Assembly (NCBI GenBank): GCA_951406725.2
Contig: OX597824.1
Span: 80,352,001 to 80,416,000 of the forward strand
Length of the DNA stretch: 64,000 bases
Direction of reading: 5' to 3'
Source of the DNA: Octopus vulgaris
Taxonomy: Eukaryota
Both the position numbers and the translations under genes were made by a program. This document shows, piece after piece, positions 19,326 through 26,787 of the stretch; the first letter of the stretch is position 1; every line of letters starts with the position of its first letter. The notes under the pieces were generated by a model. That model made no database searches. It was not told the origin of the DNA and saw nothing but the letters and a program-made list of their open reading frames with translations.

Positions 19326-19380
<55 letters not shown>

Positions 19381-19384
<4 letters not shown>

Positions 19385-20026
19385 ATAAAGGGTGGAATAT
19401 AATTAATTTAAAAAAATTAATCAATTTCACCTAGTAGATTTGTCGGTATGGAAAAGACCATGTTTGGTAAGGGTTATAATAATTATAATTAAGGGTTAAA
19501 TGCAACAAGTTGCTCAAAACCACATACCGAAAATATTAGAAATAGCAGCCGAAATTGGTCATTATTTCCTCTACTAGTAAAAAGTCTCCACAAACAAACA
19601 GAATTTGTAAGCTGTATATGGCAAAAAAGGCAGAAAATAACGAAAACCCAGTCTATGGATTAATTATAGACGAATCGTTTCTGGATTAGAACCGAAGGTT
19701 CATTTCTTTGTCAATATAATATTTCCTATAAATCTAGAAATGCTAGGGGAAAAAACTTACCCGTTACACCAGTACGATCTGCGACATCGGACGGCTTAAC
19801 GGAACTGCTAGCATTCGTACATCTATGCCGACATGCGAATTCATATTTCCCTCCAAAATCTACCACGTGAGCCACAAAAACATTACCAACGAAACGAAAA
19901 ATTCGGAGATAACTTGTAAGGGAGCAAAAGTATTCAATATGCAATAAAGGGTGGAATATAATTAATTTAATAAAATTAATCAATTTCACCTAGTAGAATT
20001 GTCGGTATGGAAAAGACCATATTTGG

Positions 20027-20029
<3 letters not shown>
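19381..20029 (-). mobile_element. 559-bp unit plus 90-bp terminal direct repeat, inserted in (TA)n; retrozyme-like
   Basis: 19381-19470 is repeated at 19940-20029 (3 mismatches). Motif order is shared with the 485-bp unit. A decayed HHR lies at 19663-19720. Confidence 0.7.
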
Positions 20030-20056
<27 letters not shown>

Positions 20057-20057
<1 letters not shown>

Positions 20058-20219
20058 ACTTATAAAATAAGGGCAAGAGAAAATTTAATGCCTAATATGC
20101 CGAAAAAAAGACAAAATTGTCAATAACCATTATAAATTATAATGGTTATTGACAATTTTGTCTTTTTTTCGGCATATTTGGCATTAGAATTTTTTCTCTT
20201 GCCCTTATTTTATAAGTTA
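20057..20219. repeat. ~80-bp-arm palindrome next to (TA)n
   Basis: taacttataaaataagggcaagag..ccattata / tataatgg..ctcttgcccttattttataagtta. Confidence 0.9.
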
Positions 20220-20307
20220 GTTATAAATTTAACCTTTAAAGGTATTTTTTGATATGTTGGCCATTGATAAATTTTTTTCTTTCGAAAAAAATCTTATCCT
20301 ATATTAG

Positions 20308-20371
<64 letters not shown>

Positions 20372-21243
20372 TTGATTTATTGAAATCATCTCCACTTCTA
20401 TATGAAGTATTTAAATACCAAATACCAATTGAGACCAGCTTCCCACGAGAAGGTGTATTACTTTCTGGCCTCAGAAAGTAATTCCACAAAGTTGACTTGC
20501 CTTCCAGGAAAATAATAGTTTTATCATCTGCAGAGTTGTGACCAGTTGTTGCAGCCAGCCGCTTGTTTGTCAAAAGGTGATATCAGCTTGATAATCCTCT
20601 TAATTGAGGCACTTTTTCACTTATAATTCAGCATTTAACGCCTAGGTAATTTGCATAGTTTAAACAAAAATGAATTAAGAAAATTATCTCAGAGTCGCCA
20701 GTAGCATGTATTTGAAGAACATGGACAAATAGATCAATACATCAAAAGTTATTGGATAAATAAGGGTATATCCGTGAAATACAGACAGTGACTCAAGCAC
20801 TCATGAAATCTTTCGGGTAACATTTTTTGATAGAAGGGGAAATAATCCAGTAAATCTCAAATATTTCACACGAATTAAAAATCCAGGAAATGTCCATAAT
20901 CATCAATCACAGTCTAACGTAAATAAATAAATGAATGATGATATTGATATCACATTTATTATCCGGTTACGATCGTTTCAATAACAGGTGAGATAGTTAT
21001 ATCATTTGAAACACTGGAACGTATATACGCAATATTTATGCAAGAACATGCGATTTTACGATATTAGAGCAAAACTCGAGCCTACGTTTGCGATGGAGAG
21101 GGTTACACGATTAGATCGACCTCTGCAACCAGCTTGAGTTTTATTTTTTCGAACCCTGTATATTAAAAGACAGCACAAATACCACAAAGCACTTTTCTAC
21201 ACCACTGTGTGCCCGCCAATTTAATCCACCTGCCCTCCTACTT

Positions 21244-24059: not shown

Positions 24060-24442
24060 GGAGGCGCAATGGCCCAGTGGTTAGGACAGCGGACTCGCGG
24101 TCGTAGGATCGCGGTTTCGATTCCCAAACCGGGCGTTGTGAGTGTTTATTGAGCGAAAACACCTAAAGCTCCACGAGGCTCCGGCAGGGATGGTGGTGAT
24201 CCCTGCTGTACTCATTCACCACAACTTCCTCTCATTCTTACTTCCAGTTTCTGTTGTACCTGTATTTCAAAGGGCCGGCATTGTCACTCTCTGTGTCACG
24301 CTGAATATCCCCGAGAACTACGTTAAGGGTACACGTGTCTGTGGAGTGCTCAGCCACTTACACGTTAATTTCACGAGCAGGCTGTTCCGTTGATCGGATC
24401 AACCGGAACCCTCGTCGTCGTAACCAACGGAGTGCTTCCACC
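24060..24442 (+). mobile_element. SINE family A (part of an inverted duplication)
   Basis: Same sequence as 15784-16167; lacks its own 5' TSD. Confidence 0.9.
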
Positions 24443-25240
24443 ATTAGTCATGTAGCTTTTGAATTACAGTTGTTCAAGGCATCTATCTATTATTTCGACC
24501 TTACTGGTTTTGTTGAGGCAGGGTCAGTAAAGTCGCTAAGCACCTTCACTATCGGAGGACCTGTGAAACCCATAGACACATCCCATCTTTAGCGGAGTGT
24601 CTTTAGAAGTTCAGACACATAACCTGTTCCCAACTGAGAGCGCGCAAAGTCCATGACTACAGGCGTATCTTACTTTAGGGGCCTGCAAAGAACACGAGCA
24701 CTGCCATTTTCCATTGGATGACCGGCACAGCGCCTGAATAGGATCCCTTTTCAGTTGGAGAACCTGCCAATTTGATAATATCAGGCAGTCTCTTCTTTTA
24801 TGTTAGGGCCTGCGAAGAGTATGAGCGTAGCCCGATCTTCCAAGCCAGACTATTGAATAAACATAATGCGCCATATCCATCTTTTTACGTCCCACGAGGG
24901 CCTGAAAAATATCTCGCAGCTTTAATCACGAAACGAGCCAATGAGGAAGTGAGAACGTGACCACTCAACTTGATAGATATAGCAGCGAAACCTACCTCAA
25001 ATTACACCATAGATAATTTAGAATAACATACTGTAGATAATGTGGTTCGGAGTACATAATGAATGTAAATAAAATACGAGATGGGCATGGATGGAATGAT
25101 TTCGATTATAGAAACAGTGCAGTAGAGAGAGCTTCAGATTAAGAAATAGGAAATATGAAACAATAATGAAACAACAGCAACTAACAGCTAAACAACTAAT
25201 CAAGAAGTTTGTGGAGGCGCAATCGGTTGACTTCTTGATT

Positions 25241-25630
25241 GGTGGAAGCACTCCGTCGGTTACGACGACGAGGGTTCCGGTTGATCCGAATCAACGGAAC
25301 AGCCTGCTCGTGAAATTAACGTGTAAGTGGCTGAGCACTCCACAGACACGTGTACCCTTAACGTAGTTCTCGGGGATATTCAGCGTGACACAGAGAGTGA
25401 CAAGGCCGGCCCTTTGAAATACAGGTACAACAGAAACAGGAAGTAAGAGTGAGAGAAAGTTGTGGTGAAAGAGTACAGCAGGGACCACCACCATCCCTGC
25501 CGGAGCCTCGTGGAGCTTTTAGGTGCTTTCGCTCAATAAACACTCACAACGCCCGGTCTGGGAATCGAAACCGCGATCCTACGACCGCGAGTCCGCTGCC
25601 CTAACCACTGGGCCATTGCGCCTCCACAAA
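25241..25630 (-). mobile_element. SINE family A with 10-bp TSD
   Basis: cttcttgatt at 25231-25240 and 25631-25640. Confidence 0.9.
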
Positions 25631-26400
25631 CTTCTTGATTAGTTGTTTAGCTGTTAGTTGCTGTTGTTTCATTATTGTTTCATATTTCCTATTTCTTAAT
25701 CTGAAGCTCTCTCTACTGCACTGTTTCTATAATCGAAATCATTCCATCCATGCCCATCTCGTATTTTATTTACATTCATTATGTACTCCGAACCACATTA
25801 TCTACAGTATGTTATTCTAAATTATCTATGGTGTAATTTGAGGTAGGTTTCGCTGCTATATCTATCAAGTTGAGTGGTCACGTTCTCACTTCCTCATTGG
25901 CTCGTTTCGTGATTAAAACTGCGAGATATTTTTCAGGCCCTCGTGGGACGTAAAAAGATGGATATGGCGCATTATGTTTATTCAATAGTCTGGCTTGGAA
26001 GAGCGGGCTACGCTCATACTCTTCGCAGGCCCTAACATAAAAGAAGAGACTGCCTGATATTATCAAATTGGCAGGTTCTCCAACTGAAAAGGGATCCTAT
26101 CCAGGCGCTGTGCCGGTCATCCAATGGAAAATGGCAGTGCTCGTGTTCTTTGCAGGCCCCTAAAGTAAGATGCGCCTGTAGTCATGGACTTTGCGCGCTC
26201 TCAGTTGGGAACAGGTTATGTGTCTGAACTTCTAAAGACACTGCGCTAAAGAAGGGATGTGTCTATGGGTTTCACAGGTCCTCCGATAGTGAAGGAACGG
26301 TGCTTAGCGACTTTACTGACCCTGCCTCAACAAAACCAGTAAGGTAGAAATAATAGATAGATGACTTGAACAACTGTAATTCAAAAGCTACATGACTAAT

Positions 26401-26787
26401 GGTGGAAGCACTCCGTCGGTTACGACGACGAGGGTTCCGGTTGATCCGATCAACGGAACAGCCTGCTCGTGAAATTAACGTGTAAGTGGCTGAGCACTCC
26501 ACAGACACGTGTACCCTTAACGTAGTTCTCGGGGATATTCAGCGTGACACAGAGAGTGACAAGGCCGGCCCTTTGAAATACAGGTACAACAGAAACTGGA
26601 AGTAAGAGTGAGAGAAAGTTGTGGTGAAAGAGTACAGCAGGGATCACCACCATCCCTGCAGGAGCCTCGTGGAGCTTTTAGGTGTTTTCGCTCAATAAAC
26701 ACTCACAACGCCCGGTCTGGGAATCGAAACCGCGATCCTACGACCGCGAGTCCGCTGCCATAACCACTGGGCCATTGCGCCTCCACA
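26401..26787 (-). mobile_element. SINE family A with ~11-bp TSD
   Basis: acatgactaat on both sides. Confidence 0.9.

Follow-up and report, generated by a model that had tools for sequence, protein, structure and literature searches.

Non-LTR retrozymes of animals have been described as non-coding, low-GC tandem units with one type I hammerhead each and a short palindromic helix III, dispersed as monomers to multimers in genomes which also carry autonomous Penelope-like elements (PLEs) (PMC7229834; bioRxiv 10.64898/2026.07.22.740005; available text of both). They have been published as non-autonomous derivatives of PLEs (bioRxiv 10.64898/2026.07.22.740005). Their circles and their cleavage have been demonstrated, and circular RNA was shown in the cases of coral, mussel and axolotl (PMC7229834). 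The insertions of PLEs themselves are reported to be partial tandems with an inverted arm and often a tail of 30–40 bp at one end, and microsatellites are favoured as targets (PMC8557442; PMC3846280). The purified anole PLE nicks both strands of AT-rich DNA, and its reverse transcriptase (RT) starts in vitro at two internal RNA sites which bound the tail. The anole enzyme is a predicted dimer, and hammerhead cleavage was dispensable for its insertion in vitro (PMC11167929). In the available parts of this literature, the enzyme that copies animal retrozymes and the way in which tandem and inverted PLE insertions are made are both named as open questions.

The analysed window comprised 64,000 nt of Octopus vulgaris DNA (contig OX597824.1, positions 80,352,001 to 80,416,000). 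The coordinates of the features are presented in Table 1. The element at 19381–20029 lies within (TA)n and consists of a 559-bp unit followed by a 90-bp direct repeat of its start, in agreement with the first-pass annotation. The repeat differs from the start of the unit at 3 of the 90 positions. Judged from its sequence, the stretch is a single-arm insertion and probably represents a non-LTR retrozyme, a non-autonomous retroelement for which a Penelope-like enzyme with RT and GIY-YIG domains would do the copying in trans. No ORF of at least 120 aa and no RT or GIY-YIG frame was found in the 559-bp unit, and no LTR-like architecture was detected in the insertions of the 559 family. Because both flanks of the insertion are (TA)n, no target-site duplication was readable. 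All the retrozyme traits given above, from the low-GC tandem units to the co-resident autonomous PLEs, were found here as well. The unit lengths of 485–594 nt compare with approximately 170–400 nt in PMC7229834 and fall within the range of 51–972 nt in bioRxiv 10.64898/2026.07.22.740005. The 559 family differs from the metazoan retrozymes in its U3-A8 core. As far as the available text of the two sources goes, inverted two-arm insertions which arise from two fixed sites are described for the octopus units only.

Table 1. Features of the 559-bp element and of the related 485-bp array (positions of the window)
Feature	Position	Strand	Basis or remark
(TA)n target run, S1 (initiation) end	19328..19380	.	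window repeat layout
559-bp unit in cDNA order	19381..19939	+	alignment; minus strand inferred as the RNA
Second round, first 90 bases of the unit	19940..20029	+	ends at the truncation joined to (TA)n
(TA)n run, truncated end of the window copy	20030..20057	.	
Start site S1 motif	19383..19395	+	most family arms begin 0–3 bases before the motif
Predicted long hairpin directly 5' of S1 on the RNA	19391..19431	-	fold of the linear unit
Start site S2	19475..19495	+	unit positions 95–102 and the following AATTAAGGG motif
Conserved structured terminal module, ~180 nt	19379..19560	-	profile, consensus fold, covariance model
TAGAAATA motif of the terminal module	19537-19550	-	
Type I hammerhead motif	19663..19720	-	alignment and covariation
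Hammerhead stem I	19720-19715 with 19668-19663	-	
Hammerhead core U3-A9	19714-19708	-	
Predicted hammerhead cut	between 19669 and 19668	-	stem III palindromic
G10.1 substitution, private to the window copy	19707	-	1 of the family loci compared
Related 485-bp array, two inverted arms	51428..54828	.	left end at S2, right end at S1
Terminal module in the 485 array	51812-51977 and repeats		C3-G8 hammerhead in the array

The genome searched amounted to 2.8 Gb in 227 contigs. The 559 unit proved to be a dispersed repeat, with 101 matches obtained from the best 40 of 2,516 candidates, and the copies were 87–97% identical and spread over many contigs. The longer S1 motif gave 135 exact genome matches and the 559-type hammerhead 100. 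As the copies of 79 loci, one of which was counted twice, differed from the majority base by a median of only 2.8%, the 559 family was determined to be young. It is a genome-wide, non-coding family, the window copy being a slightly damaged member. The motif from unit positions ~133–170 gave 5,644 genome matches and its reversed control none. Sister families, with 70–95% identity in the terminal region and periods of about 584 and 594 bp, were recognized when 81 of the 100 listed places were read. The family had previously been called old and diversified; the comparison indicates that the diversification lies in this wider set of sister families and not in the 559 family, for which the description did not hold. 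Parts of the 559 unit were also present in sequencing runs labelled as three other organisms. Three sequencing runs, guessed to be RNA, covered the multicopy repeat (as contigs) but not the unique flank 20389–20628, which was covered by a DNA-like run. A description of the family was not found in the listed literature on octopus or cephalopod PLEs, retrozymes, PLE twin priming or Neptune tails, the supplements of which may name it.

The starts of the arms were determined in two samples. The first one consisted of 84 distinct insertions, with 125 arms, from the first 100 of the 135 places with the S1 motif. The arms started at unit position ~1–3 (S1) or ~95–102 (S2) and had variable opposite ends; 116 of the 125 S1/S2 starts adjoined (TA)n. 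Two-arm inverted insertions accounted for 47 of the 84, resulting in 40 S1+S2 pairs, 7 pairs of S1 with an unclassified start and no S1+S1 pair. Single arms were found in 34 cases (31 S1, 3 S2), and two insertions were complex. In the second sample, 73 loci selected with a motif that both types of arm contain, S1+S2 was determined for 22 of 24 called pairs with no same-site pair, and 45 S2 and 43 S1 ends were counted. The combination S2+S2 was detected in one copy (L255) among 15 extra loci. The arms and rounds of one insertion shared their haplotype, with 291 shared non-majority against 68 discordant polymorphic sites, and the private discordances within insertions amounted to 173 in 11,422 sites. 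S2, which starts the opposite arm of the two-arm copies, was not used by the window copy. The permutation point of the window copy is the fixed start site S1, the same site that ends the 485 array, and not a random opening of a circle. S2 may bear a weak resemblance to a TTAGGG telomere template.

Since the starts of the copies fall on two fixed points within TA repeats, Penelope-type enzymes likely inserted them. The partial tandems, the inverted truncated arm, the one-ended extension, the AT-rich or (TA)n targets, the hammerhead in the terminal repeat and the two internal start sites are all shared with endonuclease-bearing PLEs and their pLTR tail (PMC11167929; PMC8557442; PMC3846280; available text). 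The two-arm footprints fit the behaviour of the anole PLE but with a longer tail: the S1–S2 distance was about 95–105 nt in comparison with 30–40 bp, a 2–3-fold greater length. The 559 family further differs from these PLEs in having no ORF, in a start module which is common to families that no longer align pairwise, and in the lack of a partner among the sampled PLEs. Chlamys non-autonomous PLEs such as MRC1 (PMC8557442) are similar in their pLTRs and multicopy head-to-tail insertions. According to the available text, their 3' ends are similar to those of their autonomous partners, and their clade is reported to be without canonical hammerheads, whereas the 559 family has the hammerhead motif and, among the sampled PLEs, no such partner.

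The hammerhead on the minus strand had been regarded as decayed, with a family consensus expected to restore CTGACGA. In the present analysis, TTGACAA was found in 41 of 41 aligned regions from 24 loci. The cores of the 100 genome-wide matches, scored by eye, were 97 TTGACAA and one each of TTGATAA, TTGACGA and CTGACAA, with no CTGACGA. TTGACAA is therefore the family-wide state and a decayed core was ruled out. The U3-A8 pair was present in 98 of the 100 genomic copies. By comparison of the sequences, it corresponds to a compensatory swap of C3-G8 (C3-to-U with G8-to-A) in which the 3-8 pair is kept, and the absence of CTGACGA from the 559 majority is due to this compensation. In the sister families, the same stem II scaffold was combined with CTGACGA, CTGATGA or TTGATAA cores. 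The same U3-A8 covariation is reported for about 1,300 Schistosoma motifs, which are PLE hammerheads (PMC4209133). With the Cercyon PLE hammerheads of Schistosoma described there, the 559 hammerhead shares U3-A8 for C3-G8, a long helix II, the G10.1-C11.1 pair and a palindromic helix III. In comparison with the Cercyon motifs, as far as the available text describes them, the 559 family has an unpaired base 3' of stem II (on both sides in five sister sequences) and the octopus stem II a conserved 3x3 internal loop.

As Rfam gave no match at the gathering score for the hammerhead, its assignment rests on alignment and covariation. In nine sister-family sequences, 94.6% of the cells paired and 10 of 17 pairs had two-sided changes, a result reached by 0 of 500 shuffles, which is not to be read as a probability for these related sequences; slid controls paired at 30–39%. 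The gap placement in the nine-row alignment leaves the 3-8 pair uncounted in 4 of the 9 rows. The G10.1 substitution of the window copy resulted in predicted pair probabilities of 0–0.19 for the outer stem II, compared with 0.80–0.84 in the modal copy, and probably weakens this part of the stem. In the 559 hammerhead, stem II and G12 are also separated by an unpaired A, while the usual extra base of minimal hammerheads lies between 9 and 10.1 (PMC4209133). Because this A sits before G12, the cleavage activity of the predicted 559 hammerhead is not assured. One hammerhead is present per 559 unit and thus a single one in the window copy; at least two complete tandem hammerheads were found at some family loci, including L252.

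The relation of the 559 unit to the 485-bp unit of the same window was evaluated at several levels. The shared motifs occur in the circular order that had been noticed in the first pass, with exact matches at 559/485 positions 9/9, 75/80, 107/106, 157/141 and 517/471, and in each unit the minus-strand hammerhead is located between the last two of these. The proposed alignment of the 559-mer with a doubled 485-mer was not significant (z 0.7–1.7; 200 shuffles, four scoring schemes). A colinear word chain was reached by 4% of 500 shuffles, and the terminal module alone by 1.5–10% of 2000 shuffles. A profile of the terminal ~190 nt, built from eight 559-like sequences with the 485 unit left out, matched the 485 unit end to end and in the expected register with z values of 4.4, 5.9 and 3.1 at three gap settings; 0, 0 and 3 of 300 shuffles per setting scored as high. 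On the reverse strand, z was about 0. With a covariance model of ten 559-like sister-family sequences, the 485 unit again left out, all seven complete 485 modules were matched over the full length with 26.8 bits (rough E 0.016); only the 559 copy and one sister fragment scored higher in the window. With default nhmmer, the match to the 485 unit was confined to the TAGAAATA block, at 2.9 bits, a score which 7 of 1000 shuffles also reached.

The kinship of the two units consequently stands for the terminal module and the start sites and falls for whole-unit colinearity and pairwise alignment. From these comparisons, the relation is real but limited to the module, and the 485 family appears to use the same module and the same two sites as the 559 family. 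The RNAalifold consensus predicted a long-range stem around S2 and two small hairpins; only one pair had a two-sided change within the sequence set. The hairpin at 19391..19431 was absent from this consensus, and the 485 unit has a hairpin of different sequence at the equivalent position. The minus strand of the 559-bp unit gave a folding z of -2.7 when the linear window unit was folded. In the search with the S1 motif, only 485- and 559-type sequences were found among 100 listed of 1,980, and six variant matches were all of the 485 type. In the 485 unit, 11 bases of the strand directly 3' of the predicted cut are complementary to the TAGAAATA motif, which could represent a switch between ribozyme stem I and the module.

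Other insertions were detected in parallel. The (TA)n of the 559 copy also contains, directly beside it, a small inverted insertion with two arms, from another family, at 20058–20310. It has S2-like and S1-like ends, a module profile z of 3–5.4 and 24.8 bits with the covariance model; default nhmmer gave no match in it, and a longer relative at L128 has a C3-G8 hammerhead. A single S2 arm of a sister family lies in (TA)n at 33217–33308. The two-arm inverted insertion at 36320–36720, also in (TA)n, carries a hammerhead-like motif (CTGATGA) in each arm and, on one side, a tail of about 120 nt; it reached only 14.8 bits with the module model. At L253:994-3321 (G000:C10:27048500-27052500), six repeats of a 266–276-nt sub-unit (positions 246–521) are accompanied by one interleaved full unit. 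The sub-unit keeps the hammerhead, is without the start module and is joined at short microhomology; the array could be the product of a mini-circle, of template jumping or of local duplication. The region 24165–26678 has long inverted repeats (681 and 380 nt, 98–99%) and a recurring GC-richer SINE-like repeat, with no ORF of at least 120 aa. The open frame of 183 aa at 55140–55691 presumably resembles the C-terminal end of a LINE (CR1/L2-type) ORF2.

Intact PLEs were found in the genome. The young autonomous family represented by L127:906-5670 encodes a 781-aa RT and GIY-YIG frame with a Neptune/Nematis-type cysteine finger. Of 81 listed copies, 28 have this frame open, and the copies end in (TA)n. 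An upstream open frame of 359 aa was not clearly assignable to a Pfam family. A U3-A8 hammerhead-like core was seen by eye about 80 nt from the 3' end. The terminal module was not found at the 3' end of the 781-aa PLE, and no autonomous PLE with the module was detected among 50 GIY-YIG loci, dominated by one family. Five inspected module matches near GIY-YIG loci were separate small insertions in the flanking (TA)n (two weak matches left out).

The window element had been interpreted as the signature of a circular or multimeric template around which the RT ran more than once. Reverse transcription past one unit was supported, as 16 of the 125 arms were longer than 559 nt and one arm, at L252, amounted to 7.2 units. 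A 1.16-mer by itself does not distinguish between circular and multimeric templates. The predicted cut site was passed in 46 cases, of which 40 continued beyond it, which means that the template was uncut or religated. The same passages are also expected if the same element and enzyme used an uncut linear multimer, transcribed from a tandem array with a weak or incidental hammerhead. Homogeneous tandem arrays are available as possible sources (the 7.2 units at L252, the 485 arrays), unprocessed RNA was the dominant substrate of the anole PLE in vitro (PMC11167929), and 8 of 9 Xenopus retrozyme dimers were left uncleaved in vitro in one published study, according to its available text. A linear template, however, cannot give daughters that exceed the parent in length, whereas young arrays of several units are common, and the hammerhead helices are kept by compensatory change. 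The arrays were near-identical inside and differed between loci (edit distance mostly 0 within and 0–47 between, units partly read twice), and one private variant was common to all the L252 units, both pointing to repeated amplification of single monomers. A circular template is for these reasons modestly favoured, and the uncut multimer is regarded as the weaker explanation, although one to be taken seriously. Some arms end near the hammerhead cut site, 6 of 46 at a distance of up to 5 nt and 4 of up to 1 nt. These ends were set aside as a trace of cleavage because the site ends in ATTATA, offering TA microhomology, and a larger cluster of ends lies at 270–279.

The inverted architecture could in principle arise without a second start on the RNA, from fold-back self-priming of one cDNA or from amplification of satellite or fold-back type at the DNA level; S2 would then be determined by endonuclease resolution. 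Published proposals attribute the head-to-head junctions of PLEs to self-priming (PMC3846280) and their tail to endonuclease resolution (PMC8557442). The near-symmetric junctions, 8 of 40 against 2.8 expected (p 0.004), were in excess, so a minority of the copies is compatible with fold-back. In 23 of the 40 two-arm copies, neither arm contained the other, which indicates that both arms were read from a template and not folded back from one cDNA. Together with the existence of single S2 arms and the dispersal of copies whose every arm has one fixed and one variable end, this makes fold-back or DNA-level amplification an improbable general origin. Still slightly less probable is that the copies are 5'-truncated terminal repeats (pLTRs) of an autonomous PLE and form no separate family. 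PLE insertions are mostly truncated and inverted, with minimal hammerheads (PMC8557442; PMC4209133; available text), and the places examined were only 81 listed ones of the 5,644 module matches. The long arms, on the other hand, returned to S1 after 559 nt and did not proceed into an ORF, the sister families returned likewise at their own periods, and the module was contiguous with RT sequence at 0 of the 73 module loci.

In the favoured reading, that of a retrozyme copied in trans, tandem copies would be transcribed on the minus strand and the hammerhead, probably as a dimer formed via the palindromic stem III, would cut out monomers which may be ligated into circles. A PLE protein, probably dimeric, would bind the structured module of ~180 nt and nick both (TA)n strands. 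Two cDNAs would be primed on one RNA species, at S1 and S2 respectively; they would stop at variable points and then be joined head to head. In the window copy, only the S1 cDNA would have been fixed, extending over 649 nt through the hammerhead and beyond its own start. The retrozyme class, the U3-A8 core and the one-ended tail are already published; the longer tail, the S1+S2 pairing counted in two samples and the module common to families that no longer align are added here.

More tentatively, the 485–594-nt units may form a superfamily of ribozyme circles with more than 5,600 module copies, in which the folded module makes a dimeric Penelope enzyme prime exactly one cDNA per site, the two sites being ~95 nt apart on one circle, and roll round this circle. 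By the same tentative reading, the module would be kept in its fold between families without alignment and without a counterpart in the sampled autonomous PLEs. The short young copies give countable footprints, namely one start site per arm, arms which are not copies of each other and read-through at the ribozyme site. They also define an RNA of ~180 nt and two exact positions which are directly testable in vitro. If the superfamily reading is true, the module would act as a cis signal that is portable and directs two-strand insertion into (TA)n, and it would provide a direct handle on the inversion mechanism of PLEs and on the enzyme that moves animal retrozymes.
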